Below, piece after piece: positions 2,575 to 51,328 of a DNA stretch of 62,468 nucleotides; the stretch's first letter is position 1; every line of letters starts with the position of its first letter. The DNA lies in NCBI GenBank assembly GCA_905477545.1, contig CAJQGN010000002.1, positions 1 through 62,468 on the forward strand, read 5' to 3'. The notes beneath the pieces are model-generated. The model had not been told where the DNA came from. It searched no databases and was given only the letters and a program-made list of their open reading frames with translations. This DNA comes from an uncultured Acidimicrobiales bacterium. GTDB taxonomy: Bacteria; Actinomycetota; Acidimicrobiia; Acidimicrobiales; Poriferisodalaceae. A program made the position numbers and the translations under genes.

Positions 2575-3629
2575 CCAACACCTAATTTGAGGTCCTCGTC
2601 AGTTTGATTTTGAAACCGGAGAATCCATCGGAGAATAGTTGGAGCTGCGACGAAAAAAAGAATCAGAGCTTGAATCACATCTATTATTTCTGGTGCCACA
2701 TCAGCTTTAAACTGCATACGCGAAGCACCGGCTTGCATTAAACCGACTAATAAACCAGCTGGGATAACACCTATTGGATTTGCTCGCGCAAGCAACGCAA
2801 TAGTAATCCCCTCAAAACCTAGACCCACGTTTACGCCGGCTTCGAAACGGCCATCAACTCCTAAACTTTCTACAGCTCCACCAAAACCTGCAAGCATCCC
2901 TGAGATAGCCATTGTGGATGCTGTGATAACTCCAATTCTGATTCCGGAATATCGAGCTGCGTCCTTGTTGAAACCAACACTTTTGACTTGGAACCCGAAA
3001 GTTGTTCGCTCAAGCACAAACCAACAGATTATGGCGACCAAGATCGCAAGAAGAAACCCAACCGGCAGAGCACCCCAGGTCGGAATTTCAGCGGATGGCT
3101 CAATGGGTGGCGTTCGAGCAATAATTCGATCACCGGAATTATCTTTCCATGGGCTAGAAGACAACCAATCAGTAAGGTTTCCAGCCACAAAATTTAGCAT
3201 GATGGTAACGATCACCTCGTGAGCACCTGAGGTCGCTTTTAGAGCACCAGCAATTCCTCCCCAGATAGCTGCCGCTAGACCGCCTGCTATCAAAGCCAAG
3301 GGAAGGTGAATAACCATGGGCAGTCCATCCAAGCCGAAACCAACCCCAGCAGCAAAAACTGCACCGATTAGAAGTTGTCCCTGACCACCAATATTGAAAA
3401 GCCCCGCCTTAAAAGCAAAAGCTACCGCTAGGCCACCAAATATGAGAGGCGTCGCTTTTTGGAACGTTCTAAGAAGAGCATCACTGTCTCGAAGCCCTCC
3501 TACAAGCATCGCTTGATACGCAGTAATCGGCGAGCTTCCCTGAGAGGCAATCAAAATCGCCCCGATTATTAGGCCCAAAGCCACGGCGGCAACAGGCGTT
3601 ACGCAGCTACGAAAAAGTTTCTTATTCAT
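2559..3629 (-). CDS. ABC transporter permease (BMP-family importer)
   Basis: 356-aa polytopic membrane ORF between the binding protein and the second permease. Confidence 0.85.
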   Translation of the reverse strand: MNKKLFRSCVTPVAAVALGLIIGAILIASQGSSPITAYQAMLVGGLRDSDALLRTFQKATPLIFGGLAVAFAFKAGLFNIGGQGQLLIGAVFAAGVGFGLDGLPMVIHLPLALIAGGLAAAIWGGIAGALKATSGAHEVIVTIMLNFVAGNLTDWLSSSPWKDNSGDRIIARTPPIEPSAEIPTWGALPVGFLLAILVAIICWFVLERTTFGFQVKSVGFNKDAARYSGIRIGVITASTMAISGMLAGFGGAVESLGVDGRFEAGVNVGLGFEGITIALLARANPIGVIPAGLLVGLMQAGASRMQFKADVAPEIIDVIQALILFFVAAPTILRWILRFQNQTDEDLKLGVGWGNK

Positions 3630-34635: not shown

Positions 34636-35007
34636 TTAAGGATCTTCGGTATAGAACTTCGAGCCGATATCAAATTTATTGGGTGCCATAAACATTCCAA
34701 GAATTACAGCGCCATTGCGACTTCGTGCTGTATGCCGATTACCCGCAGGACGCCAGATGTATTGGCCTGCTAAAGCAACGCCCTCTTCATCTTCAAAATC
34801 TCCCGAGATAACCCAAGTTTGCTCGACATCCATATGTTCATGCGCTGGTACCACAGCACCTGGGGCCAACTTAAATAGTATTGTGGACCGGCCGGTTTCA
34901 GAATCAGACCACAGGATTTTATGCTCAATCCCATCGAACGTCGATGGCTGCCAGCTCAAATTTTCTGGGTCGATGTAGATCGACCGCTTTGAAGCATCAA
35001 TGTTCAT
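34636..35007 (-). CDS. cupin-domain protein (ChrR C-terminal cupin type)
   Basis: Metal-site context VPAHEHMDVEQTWVISG. Start set at the ATG at 35007, with AGGAG 9 nt upstream; the ORF track starts at the GTG at 35013. Confidence 0.75.
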   Translation of the reverse strand: MNIDASKRSIYIDPENLSWQPSTFDGIEHKILWSDSETGRSTILFKLAPGAVVPAHEHMDVEQTWVISGDFEDEEGVALAGQYIWRPAGNRHTARSRNGAVILGMFMAPNKFDIGSKFYTEDP

Positions 35008-35448
35008 AACCACATACTCCTGAGTCTTGTTCGATCAACAGTACTTCAAAATTGATTCCTCAATATCGTCCTCAGTTCCCTCACTTTGCAGCTCCTACCA
35101 AAACCGCACCGATCTATATAAAAGATATTAGAAGTCAAGCGCTCTCACGCTGAGTACGCGACTAATGATGCAGCTGTAGCTGATTGAGACGTTGTAACAC
35201 TAAATATTGATGCAATAGCTTCTTAACATGGACAGGAAAGAGCGAATCAGAACGCTAATTATCTTCGAGAGTGTACGAAATTAGAATAAAAAATTAAAAG
35301 ATCAGTTTTTCATTAGGCATATGGTCATCGCGTTGGGCTATGTTCAAAACACGCTCTAAACAAATCGTCAAAATTTCAGTTTTTCTCAAAAGTTAATCTG
35401 AGAGGTTTGGCTTCCTCACAAATGTGTGGGAAGGCTGTTTAGGACGGC

Positions 35449-38412: not shown

Positions 38413-39000
38413 GTGACATATTCATCTAATGTGCTAATTCTTCGTCATGGTGAATCTGAATGGAATGCACTTGGCAAATGGCAAGGCCAAGCAAACCCAC
38501 CCCTTACGATAAAAGGCCAAAATCAGGCCAAAATAGCAGCAAGTAATTTAAACGACACTTTTGATTTGATTGCAGCTAGCGACCTAACCAGAGCTACTGA
38601 AACCGCCAGAATAATCGCAAATCATCAGCTAAAAACAGATGTTTCGTTACACAGCGAACTGAGAGAACGAGCTGCGGGACCATGGGAAGGTCTCACCCGA
38701 AACGAAATAGAGATTAAGTACCCCGGTGCTATATCAAAACGGCTCTGGCCTGCCGGTTACGAACATGACGAAACTGTGCTTCAAAGAGTCCTACCAATTT
38801 TGCATCATTTTGCTTCACTCCACGAAAAAATATTAGTGGTCGCGCATGGCGGCCTAATCCGAGCCCTAGATCGGTCTCTTGGAGCTCCTGATCTCCCGAT
38901 TCCAAACCTTGGAGGCCGTTGGTACCAAATCGGCGCTTCCGTAACTTACGGAGAACACATTAATCTCGTGAGCGCTAATGCTGAGATCAACGTCGAGTAG
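38413..39000 (+). CDS. histidine phosphatase family protein (phosphoglycerate mutase-like)
   Basis: 195 aa with the RHG motif LRHGESEWN and a second catalytic His in VVAHGG. Confidence 0.85.
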   Translation: MTYSSNVLILRHGESEWNALGKWQGQANPPLTIKGQNQAKIAASNLNDTFDLIAASDLTRATETARIIANHQLKTDVSLHSELRERAAGPWEGLTRNEIEIKYPGAISKRLWPAGYEHDETVLQRVLPILHHFASLHEKILVVAHGGLIRALDRSLGAPDLPIPNLGGRWYQIGASVTYGEHINLVSANAEINVE

Positions 39001-39020
39001 CGAACTATCGTATGGCAAAA

Positions 39021-39170
39021 TTACTGTTCCAAATTAATTGCCCAAGACACAACTTCATCAGGATCACTTCGATCTTCAGCTAATTGATGCAACGAAGATT
39101 CCACCCTGGCAAGTAAGAGCTCAATTTCATCTAAATCAGATTCGGTAAGATGACTCTGATCATTGCGCAT
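39021..39170 (-). CDS. possible 49-aa acidic helical protein
   Basis: ATG...TAA ORF found by hand, below the track cutoff: MRNDQSHLTESDLDEIELLLARVESSLHQLAEDRSDPDEVVSWAINLEQ. No obvious SD. Confidence 0.25.
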   Translation of the reverse strand: MRNDQSHLTESDLDEIELLLARVESSLHQLAEDRSDPDEVVSWAINLEQ

Positions 39171-39322
39171 GGTTAAAGTTTATAGCGTTTTGTGTCTAGC
39201 TGCAGCCATATGAGGATATCGACTGTCACTTACCAAAAGCTTTGCGACTAGCCTTCTCTCCACTTTCATATACTCAAAATTCACAGGCAACTCACGCCCG
39301 TCTACTTAAACCCAATCGAAAC

Positions 39323-40690
39323 ATGACCATGAACGTACAAGAACCAAAACCACGCATCTCACTCATGGTTTTCACGAGAGACCTAAGAATCACAGATAAT
39401 CCAGCCTTATCTGCTTCACTAAAAAACACTAAAACATATTGTCTTTTTGTATTTGACGACAGTCTTATCTCAGGTTCACGCCCTCCCTTAAACAGACTAA
39501 AATTTCTTAAGGATTCGCTTCAAGATCTCGCTCTAAGCCTCAAATCTATTGGGGGAGAGTTGATTATTGCTAGTGGTAAGTGGGCAGATACAGTCCTTGA
39601 TGTTGCTAAAAAAATCCATGCTTCAGAAATCAACATCGCAGATGACTACAGCACCTATGCCACCAATCGGATTACTAATCTTGAGAATTATTGCGCTGCA
39701 AATAAAATCACCTTGAACAAACATCCCGGAATATCTATCGTCGAACCAGGGGTTCTAGCTCCGACGGCAGGTTCTGAATATAAAATTTTCACGCCATATT
39801 TTCGTAAATGGATAAACGCCTCATGGCGACGCCAAGCGGTTTTGCCTAAAACAATCGAATTTGGGAAGACCGACCACCAATTCTCTCTTTCTCAAAAGAG
39901 TAAAGATCTTCTTTCAATCAGTTCTTCGGGTTATGGCGGAGAAACTAGTGGTAGCGAAAAGATGAATCAATGGTTGAGTAGGTCTTCAAATGCCTATAAC
40001 AGCACTAAGGATGTTCCTTACCTCGATAGCACTTCTCACCTCTCCGCATTTTTACATTTTGGTTGCATCTCACCGTTGAACTTGGCTATCCAAGCCCAAT
40101 CGTTCCCGGAAACTGAAAATTTTGTACGTCAGCTATGTTGGCGAGATTTTTTTCTTCAAATTCTCGCTGTCAGGCCTGATGCATCAATAAACGACTACAG
40201 AAATCGTAATGATATTTGGGCAAAAGACCCAGAATCATTTATCGCTTGGAAAGAAGGAAAGACTGGATTTCCGCTAGTTGATGCTGGAATGCGTCAACTA
40301 AAAGCTGAAGGATTTATGCACAACCGAACTCGAATGGTAACTGCTTCTTTTTTAGTAAAGGACCTATATCTAGATTGGCGAGTAGGAGCAAGTCATTTCA
40401 TGGAACATCTCATAGATGGCGATATAGCTAATAACCAACTCGGCTGGCAATGGGTTGCAGGCACTGGAACAGATTCTAACCCACATAGAATTCTTAACCC
40501 AATTCGCCAAAGCGAACGCTTTGATCCTTCGGGCTCATACATTCAAAAATGGGTTCCCGAGCTTTCAGGGCTAACACCTAAAACTATTCATGACCCTCCC
40601 TTGGTCATAAGACAACAATGTGGATATCCAGAACAAATTGTCAATCATCACGACGCCGTAGAATTATTCCGGAATAGAAGAGCAAGATAA
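39323..40690 (+). CDS. phr: deoxyribodipyrimidine photolyase / cryptochrome family protein
   Basis: N-terminal photolyase fold (VFTRDLRITDNPAL). FAD-binding C-terminal motifs: WRDFF, GFMHNRTRMVTASFLVKDL, DGDIANNQLGWQWVAGTG, RILNPIRQSERFDP. Start set at the ATG at 39323. Confidence 0.88.
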   Translation: MTMNVQEPKPRISLMVFTRDLRITDNPALSASLKNTKTYCLFVFDDSLISGSRPPLNRLKFLKDSLQDLALSLKSIGGELIIASGKWADTVLDVAKKIHASEINIADDYSTYATNRITNLENYCAANKITLNKHPGISIVEPGVLAPTAGSEYKIFTPYFRKWINASWRRQAVLPKTIEFGKTDHQFSLSQKSKDLLSISSSGYGGETSGSEKMNQWLSRSSNAYNSTKDVPYLDSTSHLSAFLHFGCISPLNLAIQAQSFPETENFVRQLCWRDFFLQILAVRPDASINDYRNRNDIWAKDPESFIAWKEGKTGFPLVDAGMRQLKAEGFMHNRTRMVTASFLVKDLYLDWRVGASHFMEHLIDGDIANNQLGWQWVAGTGTDSNPHRILNPIRQSERFDPSGSYIQKWVPELSGLTPKTIHDPPLVIRQQCGYPEQIVNHHDAVELFRNRRAR

Positions 40691-40746
40691 TTGCAACGAT
40701 TAGGATACAAAAGTCTAAATGGTGCAAAGATAGGTATCTTCGTTGT

Positions 40747-41778
40747 ATGCCATCTTTAGCGCATACTTCGATCGGGCGAGCGCGACTTCGACGCCGAATA
40801 GTTACTATCCCCGGAGTATTTTTGGTAACTGCACTTCTTTTACTTTTACTGGTACCAGTTTTAGTAATTGGTGGACTTATTGATATCTGCTACCGCAGAC
40901 CACTTTCTACAGTTCGCTTAATTCTTTTTACTCTTTGGTGGCTACTTGTTGAAAGCTTTGGGCTCATAGCCGGTTTCATTCTTTGGGGGTATTTTCGTCC
41001 TGGTAAAAGACTCGCCAATCAACGTTCCATCCAGGCACATACTGTTGTACAACGAATCTGGATTAAAGCGTTAGTGACGGCTGCACGCTTATTCCTTGGC
41101 CTAAAGATCAAAGTAGAAGGAGACTCCTTAGAAAATAAAGTAGGTCCTTTCATAATTCTGGCACGCCATGGAAGCCAAGGAGATGCATTGCTTATCGCTG
41201 CGATGCTCGGACGTTTAAAAATTCGCCCTCGTGTAATTCTGAAAAAAGAACTTTTACAAGACCCCTGTTTTGACGTATTCGGCAATCGCCTGCGTAATTA
41301 CTTTGTTGATCGTGACACAGTCGACAATTTCGAAGAAGTTGCATCGATAGGACAGTTAGCAGCTGAAATGAACCCCGATGAAGCCACTCTTATATTTCCT
41401 GAAGGTACGCGCTTCTCATTACCAAAATTAAAGAAATCTATAGCCTCTCTACAAGCAACTGCTCCGTCACGAGTCAAGTCAGCAAAAAATTTACGCTCTG
41501 TTCTCCCAATTAGAAGCCCGGGCATCCTAGCAATACTAAAAAACGCCCCCGAAGCGAACCTGATTTTTATAAATCACGTTGGCGTCAGTCAATTCCGTTC
41601 GATAAAAGATATATGGCGTAACACGCCACTACCAACCGACCTTCACTTCAACATCACATTTCTTCCTAGAAATGAAGCACCAGATAGCGCTTCCCAGGAC
41701 GAACTGATTAAGTTCATTGATTCAAGATGGGAAGAGATCGACGATTGGGTAGTTACAAATCAACAGGCCTTGAGCTGA
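40747..41778 (+). CDS. membrane-anchored lysophospholipid (PlsC-family) acyltransferase
   Basis: 343 aa. Two N-terminal TM helices, HX4D motif HGSQGD and FPEGTR. Confidence 0.75.
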   Translation: MPSLAHTSIGRARLRRRIVTIPGVFLVTALLLLLLVPVLVIGGLIDICYRRPLSTVRLILFTLWWLLVESFGLIAGFILWGYFRPGKRLANQRSIQAHTVVQRIWIKALVTAARLFLGLKIKVEGDSLENKVGPFIILARHGSQGDALLIAAMLGRLKIRPRVILKKELLQDPCFDVFGNRLRNYFVDRDTVDNFEEVASIGQLAAEMNPDEATLIFPEGTRFSLPKLKKSIASLQATAPSRVKSAKNLRSVLPIRSPGILAILKNAPEANLIFINHVGVSQFRSIKDIWRNTPLPTDLHFNITFLPRNEAPDSASQDELIKFIDSRWEEIDDWVVTNQQALS

Positions 41779-42643
41779 TTTTTGTTCTAAACGGGAAGAG
41801 CACAGGAGTGGAAGCTTTATATCGTTCGTATTCCAAATCGCCTTTCCATCTTCGATCAGCTTTTTTTTCTAACATTGGTATACCACTTATCTTGGTCAAA
41901 AGTAGCCACACGAATAGTGGGGAAACTAAAGTTACAAAACTCCATCCAGAAAGAGCCGGGATAGCGATTATGGCTACGCCTGTCCACAAGAGAATTTCAC
42001 CTAAATAATTAGGGTGACGAGAAATCGCCCACAGACCAGACGATATAAAACGATCTTTGTTCTCTTCTTGGCTCCTAAATTTACGTTTGGCTTCATCAGA
42101 AATTACTTCGACTGAGAAGCCGAGAACCCATACTAGAAGACCTAAAAACCCAATTAAACCAAAATTTTTGTCATCTGCAGAAGTAATTGCGGCCAACGCT
42201 GCTGACGCCGTAACTAGAACCCATAATCCCTGAACAGTCCAGGTAAATAAGAACCAAGCAAACTTATGTTTCATGACGTTGAATCTAGAATCTGAACCTT
42301 GACGCTTCACCCTCAAGACAAGGAACGAACCTAGTCGTAATGCCCAGGTGATAACGATGATTGCTAAGATGACTGATCGAGTGCCTACGTTTTTTGAAAA
42401 TAGGAGAGCTATGGATATGACAGTTACATAAGTAATTGAGCCTGTTAAGTCAAAAAAATGCTCTGTGTGTTTTAACCATGCTGCAACGAAACCAACCCAT
42501 TGAACTCCATAGGCAACTATCCCACACAATAAGAAAACTGAGATAGCGCTATCAGAGCCGATGCTTGCACTCACCGCTACAGAAAGTACCGTCCCTAAAA
42601 TAACCGATATTAAAATTCCGAATACGGCTTGGTTTGTTTTCAT
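41753..42643 (-). CDS. DUF1295 / steroid-5-alpha-reductase-like membrane protein
   Basis: 296-aa polytopic ORF with C-terminal WAISRHPNYLGE. ATGA overlap with the upstream SDR gene. Confidence 0.75.
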   Translation of the reverse strand: MKTNQAVFGILISVILGTVLSVAVSASIGSDSAISVFLLCGIVAYGVQWVGFVAAWLKHTEHFFDLTGSITYVTVISIALLFSKNVGTRSVILAIIVITWALRLGSFLVLRVKRQGSDSRFNVMKHKFAWFLFTWTVQGLWVLVTASAALAAITSADDKNFGLIGFLGLLVWVLGFSVEVISDEAKRKFRSQEENKDRFISSGLWAISRHPNYLGEILLWTGVAIIAIPALSGWSFVTLVSPLFVWLLLTKISGIPMLEKKADRRWKGDLEYERYKASTPVLFPFRTKISSRPVDL

Positions 42644-44169
42644 TGGATATTTCTCCGCTTTTCAGCTGCCGAAAGCTCTTCGGCTAATGCCACTATGCGA
42701 TCTAGCATCTTTTTAAAGATTAGAGTGTGCGGTGGAACCAATGCATACCAATAAAGACGCCCTAATAAACCACGAGGTACGAACAAGGCTCGCTGAATAA
42801 TTTCTGCACCATTTTCATTTTCTACTACTTGCCACTCCAACCATGCATGGCCCGGGTTTCTCATTTCACCAAGTAGCCGCAAAGAATGCGAGTTAACGGT
42901 CACCACCTTAAAAAAGTCGACGGTGTCGCCTACTCGTAAATCCGTAGGGTGCCGACGTCCACGTCTTATCCCAACTCCACCAAGAATCTTGTCGATAAAA
43001 CCGCGCAAATTCCAAAGCCAGTTAAAGGCAAACCATCCATTATCTCCCCCAACAGTTCGAAGTACCGCCATCAAATCTGCGCACCTAGCATTTGTGACCT
43101 GAGTTCTCTGATCGCTAAGAACACGTCCGCCAGACCATGCAGGGTCACTCAAAGCCGGCATTGCGGGGCCGGTTAGAGTAGAGATTTGTTTACCACCAGA
43201 AGCATTTGTCCATCGAGTAGGCATCTCAAGATCTCGGACTCTCGCTAATGCCCGATTTATTGATTGATTTAGATTAAATGAGGTAGATCGCCCTTTGTTT
43301 CGAATATCTCTATTTCCAACGACAACATCACTGGTTAATGAATCTATAAGTGATCGCGCTAGCCGAATCGGAAGAGGACTTACAAGGTTTACCCAGTGAG
43401 AAGATAAGCGCGGGGTCAAAACTGGAACTGCGATAATCAAACGACGGCGTAAGCCCGCAACCTCCGCGTACACGTCCATCATCTGTCGATATGTAAGAAC
43501 TTCAGGGCCACCAATCTCAAATACCTCACCAATTACTTCTTCATCACCGAGCACCCCTACAAGATGACTAAGTACGTCTTCAATTGCTATCGGTTGACAG
43601 CGTGTTCGAGATACCCATCTCGGGACAACCATTACCGGGAGCACCTCGACCAAAGAGCGAAGCATTTCAAATGACGCACTTCCAGAGCCAATAATAACTG
43701 CAGCACGTAATTCTGTAACTGGTGTAATTCCAGAAGCAAGTATTTCACCGACAGCGTGACGGCTTGCTAAATGAGCTGAATGAGTTTCATTATCATGGCC
43801 GAGGCCACCCAAGTAGATGATTTGCTCAAGCCCAGCATCGTCAGCGCATTTGACAAATATTTCTGCCATCTCGCTTTCCAGAGTTTCAAAAGAGCCGGAA
43901 GATGACATCGAATGAACTAGGTAGTACGCAGCCTGCGCACCTTCAAGAACTTGATTCACTTCAGAAGCGACAGAAAGATCTGCCTCCACTACTTCGACTC
44001 TCTCTCGCCACGGACGGTCATCTAAAGCCGCCGAGCTTCGCGTTGTGCATCTAACTCTGTAACCAGCTTCTAAAAGTTCCGGGACCAATCGACCACCAAC
44101 GTAACCAGTAACGCCCGTAACAACCACTGTCCCAATATCTGACTGTTCAGCAACATTGCTCTCACCCAT
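42640..44169 (-). CDS. NAD(P)H-binding SDR-type protein with C-terminal DUF2867-like domain
   Basis: 509 aa. Rossmann VVTGVTGYVGGRL, then a C-terminal lipid-binding-like extension of about 170 aa. 8-nt overlap with the upstream gene. Confidence 0.7.
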   Translation of the reverse strand: MGESNVAEQSDIGTVVVTGVTGYVGGRLVPELLEAGYRVRCTTRSSAALDDRPWRERVEVVEADLSVASEVNQVLEGAQAAYYLVHSMSSSGSFETLESEMAEIFVKCADDAGLEQIIYLGGLGHDNETHSAHLASRHAVGEILASGITPVTELRAAVIIGSGSASFEMLRSLVEVLPVMVVPRWVSRTRCQPIAIEDVLSHLVGVLGDEEVIGEVFEIGGPEVLTYRQMMDVYAEVAGLRRRLIIAVPVLTPRLSSHWVNLVSPLPIRLARSLIDSLTSDVVVGNRDIRNKGRSTSFNLNQSINRALARVRDLEMPTRWTNASGGKQISTLTGPAMPALSDPAWSGGRVLSDQRTQVTNARCADLMAVLRTVGGDNGWFAFNWLWNLRGFIDKILGGVGIRRGRRHPTDLRVGDTVDFFKVVTVNSHSLRLLGEMRNPGHAWLEWQVVENENGAEIIQRALFVPRGLLGRLYWYALVPPHTLIFKKMLDRIVALAEELSAAEKRRNIQ

Positions 44170-45058
44170 GCGAACCTGCTAGTTCTTCAGCAGCGGAATC
44201 AAGATTTGGATGCTCGAAAATGAAGCCCGATTCGGTCAGCGCGTCAGGTTTAACTCGCGCGCTCGCTAGCAGCAAACCGTCAGCCATTTCCCCTAGCAAC
44301 AACCTCAGCGCTAATGAAGGAGCTACGAGAAAAGATGGCCGTCTCATTTGTTTTCCAAAAATTCTGACAAATGACTTATTCGTTACAGGCTCCGGGGCAA
44401 CAAGATTTACCGCACCCTCAAGTTCTGAATCAAGCAAATGCAACAAAGCACGAATTTCGTCTTCCAAGCTTATCCATGACCACCATTGCTTGCCGGAACC
44501 TAATGGTCCTCCGACAAAAAATTTAAGCGTTTGCAATATTTTCGGCAGAGCACCGCCCAGCGGTGTACACACTATTCCTGTTCTTGCTATCACTAACCGG
44601 GTCTTCGGACTTGCAATAACGCTCGCTTCAAGCTCCCATTTTTTGCAGACCTCTGACAAAAATCCCGATCCACTAACAGAATTTTCTGAGAGAATCTCAT
44701 CACCTCGATTCCCATAGAAACCGATCGCAGAAGATGACACAACTACCTTCGGAGGGTTATCTAATTCTGAAATCTTGTCTGCTAGCAGAGAAGTTCCTAA
44801 AACTCGGCTGTTAAGAATCCGCTCTTTCTTTCCTTTGCTCCAACGGCCTTCGATGCTTTCACCTGCAAGGTGCACTAAACCGTCCAAACCTTCTAAATCG
44901 CTTGCATCTAAAACAGCTGTAGCCGGATCCCATTCAATATCGGCATCTTTGTTCGGACCGCGGCCTATACGAAGAACAGAATCTCCTCTTTCCTCGAGAG
45001 CTTTCGCCAATGCCGAACCAATCAGCCCTGATGCTCCAGTAATCGCATATTTAGCCAT
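44162..45058 (-). CDS. TIGR01777-family epimerase-like protein (YfcH-like, DUF1731 C-terminus)
   Basis: 298 aa with Rossmann ITGASGLIGSAL. 8-nt overlap (ATGGCTAA) with the regulator gene. Confidence 0.75.
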   Translation of the reverse strand: MAKYAITGASGLIGSALAKALEERGDSVLRIGRGPNKDADIEWDPATAVLDASDLEGLDGLVHLAGESIEGRWSKGKKERILNSRVLGTSLLADKISELDNPPKVVVSSSAIGFYGNRGDEILSENSVSGSGFLSEVCKKWELEASVIASPKTRLVIARTGIVCTPLGGALPKILQTLKFFVGGPLGSGKQWWSWISLEDEIRALLHLLDSELEGAVNLVAPEPVTNKSFVRIFGKQMRRPSFLVAPSLALRLLLGEMADGLLLASARVKPDALTESGFIFEHPNLDSAAEELAGSHG

Positions 45059-45875
45059 CAGCTAACCTTTCTATAAGATCTAGACCCAATCTAAAATCGG
45101 ACATTATGTGGTCTGCCCCAACTGATTCAGCTGTCAAACCGAACAGTCCTGAACCACCCACTACCAATGGGACATTTATATTTTCACGCCTCAGGGATTC
45201 AGTTACATCGCGCAGCCCCTCTAATGAGCCGGCGGTCGAAACTGATAATGCTACCGCAACCAGGCGGTCCGCATCTAAACAAACTTCAACAAACGATACC
45301 GGAGGAGTATTCGAACCAAGGTCGTGCACGTCGAATTTACGGCCTCTAAGCAATAAAGCCAACACGCTTGTAACTAGTCCATGTTCTTCCGTCGGTGGAC
45401 AACCCACTATTACCAGCCCGCGCTTACGGCCACGGACTGCTGAGGTGGCCTGTAGACGTCCAAGTAGTGATGGCACAATAGCTGAAGCACGATGTTCAGC
45501 AGCTATAGAAAAGGTTCCTTCTGCCCATCCCCTACCTATTGATCCCATCGCTGGGAATAGTAAATCAATACAAAAATCTTCGACATCGCAACCTGCAGCT
45601 CTGACAGACTCAGCTATCTTCCACACTCCTTCTTGGTCACCATTAATTAAACAATTCATTAATGGCTCGATCCGTGTCGACAGATCTCGATTGCCGCGTC
45701 CGACTGCAGCGGGCGCTTTATTTTTCAGTTTCTCTAATTCTTCCTTTTCAATTACCCAAGTTCCATTTTCTTTACTCGCTAGTAACATTCCCGTTCGCAC
45801 ATAGCGGTAAATAGTCATGTAGTGGAGATCTAGGATTTCAGCAGCCTCGTGAAGCGTGCACGTTTGACTGTTCAC
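45051..45875 (-). CDS. HTH (excisionase/MerR-type) + cobalamin-binding domain regulator, CarH/LitR-like
   Basis: 274 aa. N-terminal HTH LHEAAEILDLHYMTIYRYVRTG, helical-bundle motif W-x9-EH (GWAEGTFSIAAEH), and B12-binding Rossmann PPTEEHGLV...VHDLGSNTP. Confidence 0.75.
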   Translation of the reverse strand: MNSQTCTLHEAAEILDLHYMTIYRYVRTGMLLASKENGTWVIEKEELEKLKNKAPAAVGRGNRDLSTRIEPLMNCLINGDQEGVWKIAESVRAAGCDVEDFCIDLLFPAMGSIGRGWAEGTFSIAAEHRASAIVPSLLGRLQATSAVRGRKRGLVIVGCPPTEEHGLVTSVLALLLRGRKFDVHDLGSNTPPVSFVEVCLDADRLVAVALSVSTAGSLEGLRDVTESLRRENINVPLVVGGSGLFGLTAESVGADHIMSDFRLGLDLIERLADG

Positions 45876-45893
45876 TTATTGACCTTAGTTATT

Positions 45894-48854
45894 CTATTCA
45901 TCGTCAGAAACCGCCGAAATACTTTGAGGTGACAAACGTTCCATCATCGAAACTCGACGATCTTGCATCTCACGCCATGTCAGAGTCTTGACTTCATCAC
46001 GCACACCAACCGCCCGCCGTAAAGACACATCTGAAATATCTTTCGCTTCGACGGAAAACCCTATTTCCGTTGCTACACGAACACCATTCCGACCAAAAAA
46101 ACCCATCGCTATTTGAGAAAATTCGGCTAAGAGGTCCATATCTGGGTCAAGCTCTTGAACCACTGATGAAAGATAGGCAAAATTCTTTACGAAAAGCATC
46201 AGTTCTTTAGGAATTCGAGCTCCATGAGACAACAAGCCTCGAACCAGATTCCTGAACTCTGCAACAAATTCTTCCTCAGTAAGTTCTAACGGATCAAAGT
46301 CATCACGATCTAATTGGAACTCACTTATCAACAGCCCTATGTCAGTGTCAGAAGAAAAGGCTCCCAAATCACGAATCCCAGATACTTGAGCCTCCAAGTC
46401 GCCAGTCATTAGGCCAACAACATATCGCAGAAACGCGATTCGCCTTTCTCCATCAAGACGACCGGTTATACCAAAATCGACTAGTCCTACTTCTCCCTCG
46501 GTCCCTAGGAAAACATTTCCAGCATGAAAATCACCATGGAATATTCCATGAATCACAGCACCCTCAAGTAAACCATCCACCATTTGTCGAAAGATTCGCC
46601 GCACATCCACTGGTTCTATTGATAACGAGCTGAGATCTCCAAGCGGAACTCCGCTGACGCGACTCATTACAATTACCCGATCGGACACTAACTCTAGGTA
46701 TGGATCTGGCAGTTCCCAGCTATTTCGCGCGTTCGATTTTAAGGCTCGCCCAGTCTCAAACAAATTTGCCACTTCGAGTCGAAAATCTAACTCTTCACAG
46801 ATCGTCTCTGCAAACAGCTCAACTAATGCCGGCGGATTAGCCAAGGCGGCGACTGGTAACTTACCAACTAACCGGGGGGCGACCCACGCCATAACACGTA
46901 AGTCACTTGTAACCCGACGACGAATTTTAGACCGTTGGATTTTCACAACGACTGGTGTTCCATCTAATAATTGCGCCAAATGTACTTGCGCTATCGAAGC
47001 CGCAGCAATTGGAACACTCTCTACATTAAGAAAATTATTTTTTAACGGACCCAGGTCATTAACAAGTATTTTCTTTGCCTTTAACCAAGGTTCAGGGCTA
47101 ACTTGGTCCCGACATTTCCGACATTCTTCTACGAGCGCTTCTGGAAAAACTCCTTCAGCTGCCGAAATCAACTGCGCGAGCTTGACATAAGCAGGACCTT
47201 GTTTCTCACCAGCTCGAATAAGCCGCCTATAAAGAGATGCTCGGTTATCTAGATCATTTAATTTTCGGTCACAAACCTTCCATAAAATAACTGCTTTCCC
47301 AAAACGAAAAGCAGTCGTTATCAATCGCCCCAATGGAGGAAACTTTGGGCTCCTAATTAATTGTGGTATCGACGATCGAACTGAATCCCTAATAGTTGAA
47401 GCAGCACGTATCCATTCATCTTCGGGACTAGTAGAAACATCTCCAAAAACTTCCTCATTAGAAATATCAACAGCTTTAAAGGAAGAATCAATGCGAGGCT
47501 CATCACCTTTCTTAAAATTTTCCTCTATAGCAATATGTAATTCCGCAGGCCCCCAGATGCCCATTGACAGTGGCTTCCAGATAACCGGAGAAGTTAAACG
47601 AAAAGCGGGAACGAGCTCAACGAATGCAGTTAACGCCTCCTGTAACTCAGCTCGAGCTAAGGATGCGCCAAGACAATGATGTGCTCCTGCACCAAAAGCT
47701 AAATGCGGGCACCCCTTTGTTCTAGCAATATTAAACTCGTACCCATCATCCTCGGTCGATTCCGATAATCCTGCGGCATGAAGACCAAGCAAAACTGTTG
47801 TACCAGCTGGGAACCGAATACCATCGACCACTATGTCCCGTGCGGCTAATCTAGCCGTCGTCCGAACTGCACTGATGTAACGCAGCGACTCTTCAACTGC
47901 TGATGGAATAAGCGACGGATCCTCTCTCAGAGCCTCGTATTGATCGGGATGATCAGCTAAGACTGCAATCATTGCGCCTAGTTGGTTTCTAGTGGTATCT
48001 GTACCAGCAAGCAATATTGCTTGAACCATTGCAATGAGCTCATCGCTCGTTAACCGATCTTCCTCCTCTTTCCCTCGAATGAGTTCACTCAAAAGATCGT
48101 TCGTCGGTTCCTTGGACCTCTTTTCGATTAGCTCAAAGACATAAGCATCAAGTTCAGATTGAGCTTGTACAACGTCGTCCAAACGATCAATAACTGCCTC
48201 AGTATCAGCATCTAAAGCAGAAAAAATTATGTCCGCCCAATTATCGAACAGTCTCCAGTCAGCATCATCAACTCCAAGTAGTCGGCAGATTATTGGCACC
48301 GGATATGGTCGGCAGAACTCACTTACTAGTTCACCACTACCACGGTCACACATCGTTGAAATCAATGACTGTGCATGCGATTTCATAAAGGGACGCAGAT
48401 CTCTCGCCCCACCCATAGTAAAAGAACCGTTAACTAATTGACGCAAGCGGCGATGATCTTTACCTTCAACAGAAAGAACGTTTGGTCTTATTTTGAACGA
48501 ACTTGGCGCCTCAGGAACAGACAGCTGAGATCGGGACACAAACTCATTAAAGTCCGTCGACAATGAATCCATTTCTTCCAACATTGAAACGCCAGATAGA
48601 ACCGATATCCAATTGGGGTCTCTAAGAATGGACTTAACCTGTTTGAATCCTAGGACTAGGGGCCCCGCAGGGGTCGAGACCACCCAACCCGCCTCGGCAG
48701 CAAGTTTTTTACTTGCGGCGACAATTTCACCAAAATTTTGCGGCGAAATATTAACAAATGAAAGAGCCCCAGGATCATTTACATCAACTACATCTATCTG
48801 ATCAAAAGCCGAACCTATCTCATCCGCCATAGTTCTCAGACTCCTCAAAAACAT
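45894..48854 (-). CDS. cytochrome P450 fused to ABC1/UbiB/ADCK-type atypical kinase
   Basis: Uninterrupted 986-aa ORF. P450 half: LLAGTDTT (I-helix), EESLRY (ExxR), FGAGAHHCLGASLA (Cys ligand loop). ABC1 half: PIAAASIAQVHLAQLLDGTPVVVKIQR, DFRLEVANL, HGDFHAGNVF, LVDFG. Confidence 0.8.
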   Translation of the reverse strand: MFLRSLRTMADEIGSAFDQIDVVDVNDPGALSFVNISPQNFGEIVAASKKLAAEAGWVVSTPAGPLVLGFKQVKSILRDPNWISVLSGVSMLEEMDSLSTDFNEFVSRSQLSVPEAPSSFKIRPNVLSVEGKDHRRLRQLVNGSFTMGGARDLRPFMKSHAQSLISTMCDRGSGELVSEFCRPYPVPIICRLLGVDDADWRLFDNWADIIFSALDADTEAVIDRLDDVVQAQSELDAYVFELIEKRSKEPTNDLLSELIRGKEEEDRLTSDELIAMVQAILLAGTDTTRNQLGAMIAVLADHPDQYEALREDPSLIPSAVEESLRYISAVRTTARLAARDIVVDGIRFPAGTTVLLGLHAAGLSESTEDDGYEFNIARTKGCPHLAFGAGAHHCLGASLARAELQEALTAFVELVPAFRLTSPVIWKPLSMGIWGPAELHIAIEENFKKGDEPRIDSSFKAVDISNEEVFGDVSTSPEDEWIRAASTIRDSVRSSIPQLIRSPKFPPLGRLITTAFRFGKAVILWKVCDRKLNDLDNRASLYRRLIRAGEKQGPAYVKLAQLISAAEGVFPEALVEECRKCRDQVSPEPWLKAKKILVNDLGPLKNNFLNVESVPIAAASIAQVHLAQLLDGTPVVVKIQRSKIRRRVTSDLRVMAWVAPRLVGKLPVAALANPPALVELFAETICEELDFRLEVANLFETGRALKSNARNSWELPDPYLELVSDRVIVMSRVSGVPLGDLSSLSIEPVDVRRIFRQMVDGLLEGAVIHGIFHGDFHAGNVFLGTEGEVGLVDFGITGRLDGERRIAFLRYVVGLMTGDLEAQVSGIRDLGAFSSDTDIGLLISEFQLDRDDFDPLELTEEEFVAEFRNLVRGLLSHGARIPKELMLFVKNFAYLSSVVQELDPDMDLLAEFSQIAMGFFGRNGVRVATEIGFSVEAKDISDVSLRRAVGVRDEVKTLTWREMQDRRVSMMERLSPQSISAVSDDE

Positions 48855-48942
48855 TGATCTACATTTACGCCGTTTTTATTGTTCAACACCAGACACCAAG
48901 CTGCGATAAACTTGATGAAATAGTGTTTAACAACCAAGCAAT

Positions 48943-48958
48943 TATTTAGTGCTAAATA
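48943..48958. promoter_or_regulatory. perfect 7-2-7 palindrome, candidate operator
   Basis: TATTTAG-TG-CTAAATA in the 139-nt gap upstream of the P450-ABC1 gene. The surrounding sequence is AT-rich, so a chance occurrence is plausible. Confidence 0.2.
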
Positions 48959-48993
48959 TACAGGTATTTCCCTATTCCGACAGATTCAAGCGG

Positions 48994-50280
48994 TTAAACC
49001 TTATTTAAAATTGTTTCAGCGGCGCGACGGCCAGAGACCAACGCCCCTTGGATAGAAGGAGTGTCTCGATGATCACCACACACAAAACAATTATCTGAAA
49101 TTTCAAGTCGTCGTCGAAAAGGTCTACCTGGTTCGAACAATGGTTGACTATGGGCAATAGCGAAAGTCTTTAAATGGCGCCATTCATCTACGCATTCTCC
49201 AAACCACCGATGCATTTGACTGAGGACCTCACCTTCGGTGACGTCATTGTTTCCTGGCATAGCCGCAACGATCAACGCCTCTGTTCCTGTCGCGTAACTT
49301 GACGCTACGTTCGACAAAATAGCCATATTCCTTACTGGCCCCTGACCGTCTCCTGCAAGGAAAATAGCACTGTCTTTTGAGGGCGCCGCAGGAGCCGAGA
49401 AATACATGCATCTTTGAGAACGTGAATAAACAGTTTCGATTCCTAGAAGTTGCGATGCGCTAGGGCCATCGGTTGCCACAATTAACTGAGCCGGTTGAAA
49501 CTTCAGTCCGTTCTTAAGAAAAACGTCTCGACCCGCTATCGACTCAACCGGTGAATTCAACATAAGGCTATCTTCAGGTAAACGCTGAGACATTTGCTTC
49601 GGTATTTCACCCATTCCTCGACTTGGCAACGCAGCACTGCCACGAAACAAACAACCAAGAATATAAAACCCAAGCCGAGCCGATCCCTCAAGCCGAGGCG
49701 TTAACTGAATGCCAGAAAGAAGCGGAAAGAAAAAACTCCCAATTGCCTCTCGCGAAAAACCGAACTCTTGAAGCGCTAGCTCCATCGAAATATCAGACTT
49801 AGGTTCCCAAGACTTGCTTAATAAAATTCGCAACTTCAATAGTCTTAGCTTGTCCTTAGTCTTTAAGGAGCGAGAGAGCGCAGCTGGAAAAACAGCCAAA
49901 GGTCTTTTCGCTGGATCTATTAAACGACTTAATTTATCTTCTTTCACCAGCACGGCACCAGACTCGAAATAACACAGATCCAGTGCATCTAGATCAACAT
50001 GTCGCTCAAGCTCTGGGTAAGCAGTCAACAGAACTTGAAATCCGCGGTCAAAAAGAAATTCTCCATGAACATCAGTACGAACCCGACCGCCCACTTCACC
50101 AGCTGCTTCGATAACTAGGACTTCTCTCTTATTTGCTTTAAGAAAAGAAGCTGCCGCTAAGCCGGCTAGGCCCGCCCCAACTATTAGCGTTTCAGGGCTA
50201 GAGCTATTTTTTGGCTCTCGATGAATACTCACAGTCAAAGGCTTACCTGCAAAAAACTTGGCTGTCGAAAACAAACTCAA
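48994..50280 (-). CDS. NAD(P)/FAD-dependent oxidoreductase (amine-oxidase / CrtI-like fold)
   Basis: 428 aa. Dinucleotide motif LIVGAGLAGLAAA followed by VLVIEA...VGGR. The TTG start is uncertain. Confidence 0.75.
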   Translation of the reverse strand: MSLFSTAKFFAGKPLTVSIHREPKNSSSPETLIVGAGLAGLAAASFLKANKREVLVIEAAGEVGGRVRTDVHGEFLFDRGFQVLLTAYPELERHVDLDALDLCYFESGAVLVKEDKLSRLIDPAKRPLAVFPAALSRSLKTKDKLRLLKLRILLSKSWEPKSDISMELALQEFGFSREAIGSFFFPLLSGIQLTPRLEGSARLGFYILGCLFRGSAALPSRGMGEIPKQMSQRLPEDSLMLNSPVESIAGRDVFLKNGLKFQPAQLIVATDGPSASQLLGIETVYSRSQRCMYFSAPAAPSKDSAIFLAGDGQGPVRNMAILSNVASSYATGTEALIVAAMPGNNDVTEGEVLSQMHRWFGECVDEWRHLKTFAIAHSQPLFEPGRPFRRRLEISDNCFVCGDHRDTPSIQGALVSGRRAAETILNKV

Positions 50281-50417
50281 TTTTGGTTAACAAATTGTTG
50301 CTAAGAAAGAATTTCACAAGCTTCATATAGGAAAGTTCTCCCTGTTATAAGTCGCCTGTACGCTACGAGGAAGTCGATCTTTAGGTCTTTCATCTAGATC
50401 TCTATCGAACTTCTGTA

Positions 50418-50490
50418 GGGCCGCTAGCTCATCTGGTAGAGCAGGGGACTTTTAATCCCAAGGTGCCGGGTTCAAGCCCCGGGCGGCCTA
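50418..50490 (+). tRNA. tRNA-Lys (anticodon TTT)
   Basis: Hand-folded 73-nt cloverleaf. Acceptor GGGCCGC/GCGGCCT, anticodon loop CT-TTT-AA, T-arm CCGGG-TTCAAGC-CCCGG. CCA is not encoded. Confidence 0.9.
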
Positions 50491-50558
50491 CAACTACAAA
50501 TCACTTCAAGTAAATCAAAAGCTAGCTCTTAGGCGATGGTTGAACTCGCAGTGAACAA

Positions 50559-51044
50559 CTACTTATTGGTCAATCCAGGAACTGCCTGAGCGTTAATCAC
50601 TCTCAGCAACTCTTTCGGACTGATCGAAATTTCTAAACCTCTTCTACCACCGCTGCAATACAGAATTTCATAATTGTTAGCAGATTCATCGATCAGAGTT
50701 CGTAACGTTGTGCGGGTTCCTAACGGGCTAATCCCTCCCACCACATAGCCAGTCACTCTCTCCGCATCAACCCCACTCGCCAAGAAAGCCTTCTTTGCCT
50801 TCATTACCGACGACACAACTTTTAAATTTACGGTCTTAACAACTGGTACTAAAACCATAACCAGCTCGCTTTTTAAATCAGTTCGAATCAAATTCACCAC
50901 AAGCGTTTTAAATACTTGTTCTGAAGCCACTTTTAAAGCTTCAACTACTTCAAGCCCGTAACTCTTGTGTGAAGGATCATGTTTATAAGAATGAACTCCT
51001 ACTTCAATACCTAACGAGGCAACAAGATCAAGAGCCGGAGTCAC
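50559..51044 (-). CDS. ybaK: YbaK/EbsC-type Cys-tRNA(Pro)/aminoacyl-tRNA deacylase
   Basis: YVVGGISPLG motif and YbaK-like length (161 aa) if it starts at the GTG at 51044 (MTPALDL...). The ORF track extends to 51095. Confidence 0.75.
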   Translation of the reverse strand: MTPALDLVASLGIEVGVHSYKHDPSHKSYGLEVVEALKVASEQVFKTLVVNLIRTDLKSELVMVLVPVVKTVNLKVVSSVMKAKKAFLASGVDAERVTGYVVGGISPLGTRTTLRTLIDESANNYEILYCSGGRRGLEISISPKELLRVINAQAVPGLTNK

Positions 51045-51046
51045 TA

Positions 51047-51328
51047 TCAGCCGCCATCTTCGACTAGGTACATTGTGTTTTCTCGTTGTTTCCAATATCT
51101 AAGATCTATCTCATCGGCTTCAAAACGTCGTCGATGCAATCTCGATACAGCAGATCTACGAAGCTGAACCACTCGGGTGTCTTCACCTTTCTGCATACGA
51201 AAAAAATTCATTTCTCGAACTGCTGACTGAGTTATTAGATAATTTCTCGAACCCACGTGATCTGAATTTTCACGATCTCTTAGAGAAGGATGTTGCGACA
51301 ATGACCTGGGGAAACGACGGTTTTGCAT
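51047..51328 (-). CDS. hypothetical Arg-rich small protein (93 aa, or 54 aa from the ATG at 51211)
   Basis: It fills the dut-ybaK gap on the same strand. Its TGA lies 2 nt from the proposed ybaK GTG. No motif recognised. Confidence 0.3.
   Translation of the reverse strand: MQNRRFPRSLSQHPSLRDRENSDHVGSRNYLITQSAVREMNFFRMQKGEDTRVVQLRRSAVSRLHRRRFEADEIDLRYWKQRENTMYLVEDGG

Follow-up and report, generated by a model that had tools for sequence, protein, structure and literature searches.

The 62,468-nt window analysed here, the forward strand of contig CAJQGN010000002.1 from an uncultured Acidimicrobiales bacterium of the Poriferisodalaceae (assembly GCA_905477545.1), carries on its minus strand a gene for a 274-residue protein, referred to below as the regulator. 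We consider it probable that this protein is an adenosylcobalamin (AdoCbl)-dependent, light-relieved and negatively autoregulated repressor, working in the manner of CarH while not being a member of the CarH family. Judged from sequence and modelled fold, it carries the same B12 sensor module as CarH and the photocobilins on an Xis/BldC-like HTH_17 head. The wider proposition, on which we see the chances as even, is that the regulator is the founding example of a large family of B12 photoreceptor-repressors of the Actinomycetota, with an Xis/BldC-like head, a palindromic operator lying over the -10 element and a photo-oxidative-stress regulon. That regulon would include UfaD/UfaO-type furan-fatty-acid genes, SRPBCC genes, an extracytoplasmic function (ECF) sigma factor and short-chain dehydrogenases/reductases (SDRs) and, in marine lineages, a P450-UbiB-kinase fusion, a DUF2867 protein and a DUF1295 protein.

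The initial annotation had described a protein of 274 residues in three parts, and the open reading frame (ORF) and all three domains are indeed found, on the minus strand, each domain scoring above its Pfam gathering cut-off (Table 1). In the AlphaFold2 (AF2) model of the regulator, for which the predicted local distance difference test score (pLDDT) is 87.3, residues 53-62 form a disordered linker between the head and the sensor, the helices of the cap span residues 65-77, 81-93, 98-118 and 124-145, and the C-terminus (residue 274) comes straight after the Rossmann domain. An AAGG Shine-Dalgarno sequence lies 7 nt 5' of the GTG start codon. Alternative public gene calls begin at Met20 and give a protein of 255 residues from which the first helix of the helix-turn-helix is cut off; the GTG start is favoured because residues 8-19 are conserved throughout the family.

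The sensor was first annotated as being of the B12-photoreceptor type, and this is borne out by the Wx9EH motif and the lower-axial histidine, which stand in the register of CarH and hardly vary across the family. In the regulator the string GWAEGTFSIAAEH gives W117-x9-E127-H128 and aligns exactly on EAWHRGEIGVAEEH of Thermus CarH (HMMER against 8c35 and 5c8a), so that W117, E127, H128 and H165 of the regulator correspond to W131, E141, H142 and H177 of the Thermus protein. An alignment out of register with CarH had been named beforehand as one outcome that would refute the reading, and the refutation fails. The motif is in register with both photocobilins too, and H165, in the sequence EEHGLV, aligns on the histidine of the ERHEIG loop of Thermus CarH, making it the predicted lower-axial ligand of cobalt. 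The Wx9EH motif is the adenosyl-capping motif and has been linked to photoreceptor activity (PMC9304148). Among solved structures, the closest by sequence in a search of Protein Data Bank (PDB) chains are the B12 modules of the photocobilins (8J2W, 8J2X and 8J2Y; E ~1e-12, best 9e-13), the alignments covering only the B12 part of these entries; Thermus CarH comes next (E ~1e-7) and AerR is a weak match (E=0.005). When the AF2 model was compared with the PDB by Foldseek, full-length Thermus thermophilus CarH (TtCarH) was the top match, over ~290 columns, and the photocobilin B12 modules fitted with root-mean-square deviations (rmsd) of 1.8-2.2 Å (1.9 Å over 211 columns for 8j2w). Further matches were the B12 domain of a MerR-family protein from Chloracidobacterium and AerR; each of the best PDB folds belongs to a B12 light sensor.

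The regulator belongs to a large and consistently built set of proteins. Searched exhaustively, the 50%-identity representatives yielded 167 proteins at E<1e-30, almost all of them 265-300 residues long and with full-length matches, and a word-indexed search returned eight close relatives of the same architecture, followed by MerR-type CarH-like proteins. A pattern scan that took one genome per species confirmed a relative in at least 591 species genomes, the best 80 of which belong to Acidimicrobiia, other Actinomycetes (Streptosporangiaceae, Mycobacterium) and a few Dormiibacterota. Conservation was counted in an alignment of 126 representatives, drawn from 50%-identity clusters: W117 is kept in 123, E127 in 125, H128 in 121 and H165 in 125, with the whole Wx9EH motif present in 121, and the tryptophan, glutamate, histidine and lower histidine are kept in relatives of 46-58% identity as well. 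The regulator fits the family definition (265-300 residues, HYMT.YRYVR.G, Wx9EH and (D/E)xHxL(P/A/G/V)), with all signature residues present. Public names given to members of its cluster are 'methanogenic corrinoid protein MtbC1', 'excisionase family DNA binding protein' and, once, 'MerR family ... light-induced transcriptional regulator'.

On the lower face of the cofactor pocket, the classic CarH motif is D/E-x-H-x2-G/P-x41-S-x-T/V-x22-27-G-G (PMC9304148). The regulator has E163-x-H165-x2-V168-x42-S211-V-S213-x26-G240-G241, in which the histidine and the two glycines are retained and the G/P and T/V positions are substituted. The initial annotation gave its His loop as E-x-H-G-x-V, which is correct (E-E-H-G-L-V), and called it non-canonical, which holds only in part. 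The family consensus is (D/E)xHxLP and the literature form D/ExHx2G/P, and the loop is to that extent less unusual than supposed; valine is nevertheless a minority choice at position 168, where proline occurs in 85 representatives, alanine in 18, glycine in 15 and valine in 5. Because proline and alanine prevail, a residue other than glycine at the end of the loop is the family norm, and the photocobilins are alike in this respect (EWHALP).

The head is where the regulator departs from CarH. It had been put down as an excisionase/MerR-type helix-turn-helix, of which the first part stands, since the domain is HTH_17 and of the Xis/BldC/RacA type, and the second does not, since it is not the MerR domain PF13411 with its RxWERRY helix: in Pfam the head matches HTH_17, with no match to the MerR models PF13411 and PF00376, and it shows similarity to the NCBIfam model TIGR01764 'excise'. 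The family signature of this head, L.EAA..L.(V/L)HYMT.YRYVR.G.L.A.K.G.W, is nearly invariant in the 126 representatives, and the recognition helix of the regulator is HYMTIYRYVRTG rather than the RxWERRY of MerR. Modelled alone (pLDDT 87), the head is a minimal MerR-superfamily winged helix without the long MerR dimerisation helix. Its best Foldseek matches are RacA, the Xis of mycobacteriophage Pukovnik and BldC, with template modelling (TM) scores of 0.73-0.77 and rmsd values of 1.1-1.7 Å over 47-51 columns; N-terminal domains of MerR-family proteins follow, and all matches lie at TM 0.70-0.77. With so small a domain the E-values reach only 6e-3 to 2e-2, and by sequence the head alone gave no match among PDB chains. 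Membership of the CarH/LitR family, as originally proposed, is not upheld. Beside the HTH_17 head, the NCBIfam CarH equivalog NF052513 scores 51.1 bits against a cut-off of 400, with the match limited to residues 72-257. Models for corrinoid methyl carriers score 45 (MtgC), 43 (pyl_corrinoid) and 32 bits against cut-offs of 370, 215 and 420, the first two being little below the CarH score.

Because the recognition helix is nearly invariant, a shared operator was sought upstream of the regulator genes. Enrichment of k-mers in the 300 nt upstream of these genes in 82 loci brought out ATTTAG-CA-CTAAAT, which stood out as an AT-rich palindrome in mostly GC-rich genomes. Across 84 loci (1.26 Mb) its 12-bp core, TTTAG-YR-CTAAA (TTTAGNNCTAAA), occurs in 44 exact copies, compared with 0.05 expected from first-order Markov simulations, and with at most one mismatch in 72 copies in 50 of the loci, compared with 1.55 expected. 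Of these 72 sites, 27 fall in the 200 nt before the regulator start, 13 are found 600-900 nt upstream, in front of a preceding gene read in the same direction, and 9 are ~4.1-4.2 kb downstream, where amine-oxidase and SRPBCC genes diverge from a short gap. In at least six loci CTAAAT(T/A), made up of the right arm and the base after it, is a TAnnnT hexamer that stops 6-8 nt short of the start codon of the regulator. Leaderless actinobacterial promoters have this geometry, and a protein bound to the palindrome would therefore be expected to block it and repress. Sites also occur in pairs at a few discrete spacings, of 100-102 bp (L024, L026, L027 and L039), ~50-51 bp (L008, L011 and L079), 40 bp and 16-18 bp (L010, L016 and L040), a pattern suggestive of a higher-order oligomer that binds cooperatively or loops the DNA.

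A tally of ORFs anchored on the motif sites indicates which genes such a protein would control. Just downstream of sites lie the regulator itself (~20), amine oxidases (15), SDR/epimerase genes (11), SRPBCC genes (10) and ECF-type sigma factors (7), and also DUF4397 (4), polyprenyl synthase (3) and fasciclin-domain genes (3). ECF-type sigma genes divergent from the regulator, with one or more palindromes in the shared gap, are seen at L030 9283-9915, L049 9262-9864 and L053 9233-9856 (minus).

The window has a single strong site, and it heads the operon that contains the regulator. It lies ~96 nt upstream of the ATG of the P450-ABC1 gene, within the 139-bp gap that follows the amine-oxidase stop codon (48855-48993), and overlaps two minus-strand -10-like hexamers, TAAATA at 48943-48948 and TATATT at 48955-48960. 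On a position weight matrix (PWM) built from the family sites it scores 22.8; the next-best position scores 10.8, and the maximum in 20 shuffles was 17.7. Comparable sites, each with one mismatch, precede the fasciclin-like gene that heads a fasciclin - P450-ABC1 - regulator series in L007 and lie at position 1179 in L001, upstream of fasciclin - heliorhodopsin - regulator; an operator at the head of the regulator-containing operon is thus a conserved feature. Two intergenic regions had initially been proposed for gel-shift experiments. One of them, 48855-48993, has the predicted operator, whereas the other, 50281-50417 upstream of the amine oxidase, has none by exact match or PWM, and is a divergent gap bounded on its far side by a tRNA gene.

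Other candidate sites and approaches gave less. Window matches with two mismatches, which include 35193-35204 (180 nt upstream of a ChrR-cupin gene) and 41780, number 10 against 10.4 expected and are at chance level. The CIRCE element, the operator of HrcA, was considered and rejected, because an N9-spaced inverted repeat is missing and chaperone genes are absent from the surroundings; the word that it has in common with the palindrome is TTAGCACT. Comparison by eye of upstream sequence between the window and the relatives of 46-58% identity showed no common element, the motif coming to light only through k-mer enrichment across the loci; scans of 38900-51200 for consensus sigma-70 promoters and terminators were at or below chance and gave nothing useful in the intergenic regions, and a text search of the literature for the palindrome returned unrelated primer sequences only.

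The regulator gene is embedded among, and very probably co-transcribed with, its likely targets, in line with the initial annotation, and synteny, the operator at the head of the operon and an RNA contig across the P450-ABC1/regulator junction all point this way. The spacing of the genes was also given correctly, with 18 nt (45876-45893) separating the regulator from the P450-ABC1 stop codon and an 8-nt overlap (ATGGCTAA, 45051-45058) with the downstream gene. The order P450-ABC1, regulator, NAD-DUF2867, DUF1295, acyltransferase, photolyase is kept in contigs of marine Acidimicrobiaceae/Acidimicrobiales (L002, L005-L007), whose regulators are 46-58% identical to that of the window, and the arrangement is found also in the contig of a 95%-identical protein (P0001). 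In the same four loci and in the P0001 contig the P450-ABC1 fusion is directly upstream of the regulator, and the NAD-DUF2867 gene follows the regulator directly, with 68-72% identity, in L001, L002 and L005-L007. The epimerase-DUF1731 gene, whose translation is coupled to that of the regulator, is absent from the equivalent position in all relatives of 46-58% identity, where NAD-DUF2867 follows the regulator, and its presence here looks like a lineage-specific insertion into the operon.

Many marine plankton metagenomes have contigs near-identical to the window, and marine metatranscriptomes contain up to one third of its words. The operon is covered from end to end, at low depth, by assembled RNA contigs, among them one across the P450-ABC1/regulator junction (45826-46080) and one across the SDR/DUF2867 junction (43832-44401), while others run from the 3' end of the amine-oxidase gene through into the intergenic region. 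These contigs support transcription and co-transcription of the operon in situ. One metatranscriptome contig matches 44660-45056 and then continues with 60 nt of unrelated sequence, near 45063 at the 3' end of the regulator gene; it may come from a co-occurring strain in which the junction or the C-terminus is different.

Table 1. Coordinates of the regulator gene, its domains and motifs, the predicted operator and the surrounding genes in the 62,468-nt window
Feature	Coordinates	Strand	Remarks
Regulator gene, 274 aa	45051..45875	minus	GTG start; HTH_17 + B12-binding_2 + B12-binding (ORF list, translation, Pfam)
DNA-binding domain, HTH_17 winged helix	45717..45857	minus	Residues 7-53; Pfam E=1.8e-8
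Four-helix-bundle cap, B12-binding_2	45453..45668	minus	Residues 70-141; Pfam E=1.3e-11
Rossmann-type B12-binding domain	45147..45416	minus	Residues 154-243; Pfam E=3e-11
W117-x9-E127-H128 motif (WAEGTFSIAAEH)	45492..45527	minus	Upper-axial adenosyl cap motif of CarH-type photoreceptors
His loop E163-E-H165-G-L-V168	45372..45389	minus	H165 codon CAT at 45381-45383
Predicted operator, 16-bp palindrome TATTTAG-TG-CTAAATA	48943..48958		Core TTTAGTGCTAAA, 48945-48956; only exact match in window
P450 + ABC1/UbiB-like atypical kinase fusion, 986 aa	45894..48854	minus	First operon gene; Pfam p450 + ABC1
Epimerase/SDR with DUF1731, 298 aa	44162..45058	minus	Pfam; start overlaps regulator stop by 8 nt
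NAD(P)-binding + DUF2867 protein, 509 aa	42640..44169	minus	Pfam
DUF1295 membrane protein, 296 aa	41753..42643	minus	Last operon gene; Pfam; conserved in L001, L006 and L007
Flavin amine-oxidase-family gene	48994..50280	minus	Pfam; upstream of predicted operator
DNA photolyase, then acyltransferase	39242..40690	plus	Pfam; convergent with operon
tRNA gene	50418-50490	plus	Opposite strand; bounds region upstream of amine oxidase

How might such a protein work? In the dark, the C-terminal module would bind AdoCbl, with H165 as the lower axial ligand and the bundle face formed by W117, E127 and H128 capping the adenosyl group. The holo-protein would then oligomerise, and its Xis/BldC-like heads would bind TTTAG-YR-CTAAA at 48943-48958. 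Since the palindrome overlaps a -10-like hexamer, binding there would block the promoter from which P450-ABC1, the regulator, the SDR, NAD-DUF2867 and DUF1295 are read in turn. Near-UV to green light would break the Co-C bond, the oligomer would disassemble or lose its affinity, and the operon would be derepressed. Because the regulator gene lies inside its own operon, the arrangement would be one of negative autoregulation, and the switch would be reset.

How far does the resemblance to CarH extend? CarH and class I LitR proteins are AdoCbl-dependent, light-sensing, MerR-type repressors, known from Thermus thermophilus, Myxococcus xanthus, Bacillus megaterium and Streptomyces. The regulator resembles them in having a winged-helix head, a flexible linker, a Wx9EH four-helix bundle and a Rossmann B12 domain with a lower-axial histidine, in the same order. 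Its gene lies inside the target operon, as do carA and carH of M. xanthus, which are found at the end of the carB operon. In both cases there is an association with photoprotection genes, and the divergent ECF sigma gene of some regulator loci recalls LitR and LitS of Streptomyces, described as partners (PMC11519972). The differences are nonetheless considerable. The head of the regulator is HTH_17 with HYMT.YRYVR.G, compared with the MerR head and RxWERRY of CarH, and identity in the B12 module is only ~25%. The residue after the tryptophan is alanine in the regulator and His132 in TtCarH, and the family His loop is (D/E)xHxLP. The operators of TtCarH and BmCarH are tandem 11-bp direct repeats overlapping the promoter, whereas that predicted for the regulator is a short palindrome, the only conserved element found, although it does overlap -10-like hexamers. 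Finally, the predicted targets in the window are P450-ABC1, SDR, DUF2867 and DUF1295 genes, not carotenoid genes.

Photocobilins, the photoreceptors that use both B12 and biliverdin (PMC10979010), share with the regulator the Wx9EH motif, an E-x-H-x-L-P-type loop and actinobacterial hosts that include Acidimicrobiia (Saccharothrix syringae, an Acidimicrobiaceae bacterium). They differ in having a C-terminal biliverdin-binding photoglobin and no DNA-binding domain, whereas the regulator has an N-terminal helix-turn-helix and no photoglobin. Architectures that combine HTH_17, photoglobin and B12-binding domains have been listed, without experiments, operator or regulon, in the one paper found to mention HTH_17 in combination with B12-binding domains (Schneider et al. 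2021, PMC8717448); compared with these, the regulator family is the simpler HTH_17-B12 form, of 265-300 residues. The architecture was thus already visible in databases and the photoglobin-containing form already listed, and what is new here is the prediction of an operator and a regulon. BldC, RacA and phage Xis are like the head by fold, but are stand-alone domains without a sensor. AerR and PpaA, antirepressors with a SCHIC domain, have no DNA-binding domain and act on CrtJ/PpsR, in contrast to the regulator, which has a DNA-binding domain of its own; no CrtJ/PpsR-like neighbour is seen in the window, and no photoglobin-like neighbour is detected there by Pfam.

Several observations weigh against a light-relieved AdoCbl repressor. 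Valine at the G/P position, together with S-x-S for S-x-T/V, could mean that the affinity for B12 is reduced in this protein. The residue that follows the tryptophan is alanine, histidine being found there in 8 of the 126 representatives; in TtCarH, His132 provides the upper ligand of the light-state bis-His adduct (PMC9304148), and the light-state chemistry of the regulator, if it is photoactive, must therefore differ. Model scores alone do not separate its sensor domain from corrinoid proteins of methyl transfer. The palindrome is assigned to the regulator by co-localisation only. By PWM there is no operator upstream of the window photolyase, nor is there one before the amine oxidase, and the local regulon is on this account narrower than its context suggests. 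The window has no cobalamin riboswitch, and no gene for synthesis, salvage or transport of B12 was found among the window genes examined. The RNA evidence consists of low-depth assembled contigs and may include carry-over of DNA. In the literature searched, on regulators that join HTH_17 or excisionase domains to B12 domains and on mycobacterial photochromogenicity, we found neither biochemistry nor genetics of any family member.

Four other explanations were weighed against these data. The regulator might be a nutrient sensor, reading the supply of corrinoid irrespective of illumination. Its B12-binding module is intact, the scores are blind to the form of the cofactor, and marine bacteria are frequently limited for B12. 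On the other hand, AdoCbl bound in the Wx9EH manner is inherently photolabile, and the neighbours and predicted targets speak of photoprotection and photorepair, not of B12-dependent enzymes, transport or synthesis. The nearly invariant Wx9EH is, moreover, the adenosyl-capping motif of photoreceptors (PMC9304148), and we regard this explanation as improbable. A degenerate B12 pocket in this lineage, which would leave a protein that senses something else or acts constitutively, like CarA or the class II/III LitR proteins, seems to us no more probable. The valine in place of G/P in the His loop and the S-x-S in place of S-x-T/V would fit such a loss, for which B12-independent CarH paralogues are a precedent (PMC9304148); however, loss of the CarA type removes the tryptophan of Wx9EH (PMC9304148), whereas the tryptophan, glutamate, histidine and lower histidine are all kept both here and in the relatives of 46-58% identity, and valine, alanine and glycine all occur at position 168 in a family that otherwise conserves the pocket.

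The sign of regulation could also be opposite or mixed, if the regulator were a MerR-style activator or an AerR-like binder in the light state and the operon were stimulated after photolysis. The MerR superfamily fold of the head, the presence of AerR among the structural matches and the pairing of sites at 100-102, 50-51 and 16-18 bp, which hints at higher-order complexes, are compatible with this. Against it, the palindrome is just 12-16 bp and the head has no long MerR dimerisation helix; the site lies over a -10 hexamer and stops 6-8 nt short of the start codon where promoters are leaderless, a geometry typical of repression; and the characterised CarH proteins are dark-state repressors (PMC9304148). 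An activating role is in our judgement unlikely, if a little less so than a nutrient sensor or a degenerate pocket. There remains the reading implied by the name 'methanogenic corrinoid protein MtbC1' in several public pipelines, that of a corrinoid methyl carrier, which has in its favour the IMG names of cluster members and MtgC and pyl_corrinoid scores only slightly below that for CarH. Those scores are nevertheless far below the curated cut-offs (45 vs 370, 43 vs 215), a strongly conserved DNA-binding domain is fused at the N-terminus, and the hosts are actinobacteria, not methanogens or acetogens. MtbC, MtaC and MtgC are stand-alone corrinoid proteins that work with cognate methyltransferases, of which there are none nearby. 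The architecture effectively refutes this reading, and we give it next to no credence.

We therefore return to the light-relieved repressor and to the genes that surround members of its family. All ORFs within 4 kb of the regulator were clustered in the 84 loci, gene calling based on length and on GC content at third codon positions having been dropped when it lost the regulator ORF in 34 of the 84. The most frequent neighbours are SRPBCC (Polyketide_cyc2) genes, in 33 loci, flavin amine oxidases in 25 and CMAS-type methyltransferases in 22, followed by DUF1365 (19), photolyase (11) and the DUF2867 protein (10). In Rhodobacter, furan fatty acids that give protection from singlet oxygen are made by RSP1091 (UfaD), UfaO (DUF1365) and the methylase UfaM, and the products of the ufaD-ufaO operon, part of the sigma-E regulon, are among those that accumulate on deletion of the anti-sigma factor ChrR (PMC7380195). 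The presence of UfaD/UfaO-type neighbours thus places the family in a context of photo-oxidative stress. In the window, a stand-alone, 125-residue ChrR cupin-like (Cupin_7) protein without the zinc-binding anti-sigma part is encoded at 34636-35013 (minus); in ChrR, an anti-sigma factor that responds to singlet oxygen, this domain serves as the sensor.

Marine relatives add to this picture. In L001, which has a homologue of 58% identity, a heliorhodopsin gene (2546-3322), itself preceded by a fasciclin gene, lies immediately upstream of the regulator and a photolyase is adjacent, and heliorhodopsin may belong to the regulon in some marine lineages. Another marine contig has a regulator homologue beside whiB and a photolyase, and the photolyase-acyltransferase pair flanks the operon in L006 and L007 as it does in the window. 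The P450-ABC1 fusion, which scores 246 bits on the NCBIfam UbiB model against a cut-off of 488, has counterparts of 63-69% identity directly upstream of the regulator at L002 151-3078, L006 206-3154 and L007 879-3824.

Two further gene types were seen next to the regulator. In loci of Streptosporangiaceae and Mycobacterium type, a conserved gene for a protein of ~228 residues lies directly upstream of the regulator and co-directional with it, with the operator in front of the gene (L014 9258-9941, L016 5350-6036 and L042 9238-9948, all plus). Its product has no Pfam, NCBIfam or PDB match and no match to the photocobilin chains; the idea that it is a photoglobin was dropped, as it is not detectable as a photoglobin or a member of any other known family. 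It may be a partner of the regulator. In 14 loci the regulator is followed closely, on its own strand, by an imuA'-like gene (NCBIfam repair_Rv3395c, 112 bits) and a gene of ImuB/Y-family-like type (representatives at L019 10898-11662 and L065 11615-13306, 14 loci each), placing a DNA-damage mutasome cassette beside a putative light sensor; no operator was seen between the regulator and these genes.

To our knowledge, B12-based light sensing is established only for the MerR-type CarH/LitR proteins, for antirepressors of the AerR type and, recently, for photocobilins. In the family described here the same sensor would be coupled to another type of DNA-binding head, in hundreds of actinobacterial species where its members go under inconsistent names. 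The predicted operator and regulon make a loose annotation testable, as to the DNA bound, the genes controlled and the sign of control. A compact palindromic operator with a light-releasable repressor would also be a useful optogenetic part for high-GC Gram-positive hosts, and the family, if our reading is true, would give green-light optogenetics a second DNA-binding chassis that is orthogonal to CarH. For the organism itself, a common marine planktonic bacterium, the window points to the P450-UbiB-kinase fusion, the DUF2867 protein and the DUF1295 protein as light-controlled functions, the response of whose genes to light would be linked to the availability of B12. The family, in at least 591 species genomes, includes abundant marine and freshwater Acidimicrobiia and, if this reading is true, light responses of major ocean heterotrophs hinge on the supply of an exchanged vitamin.

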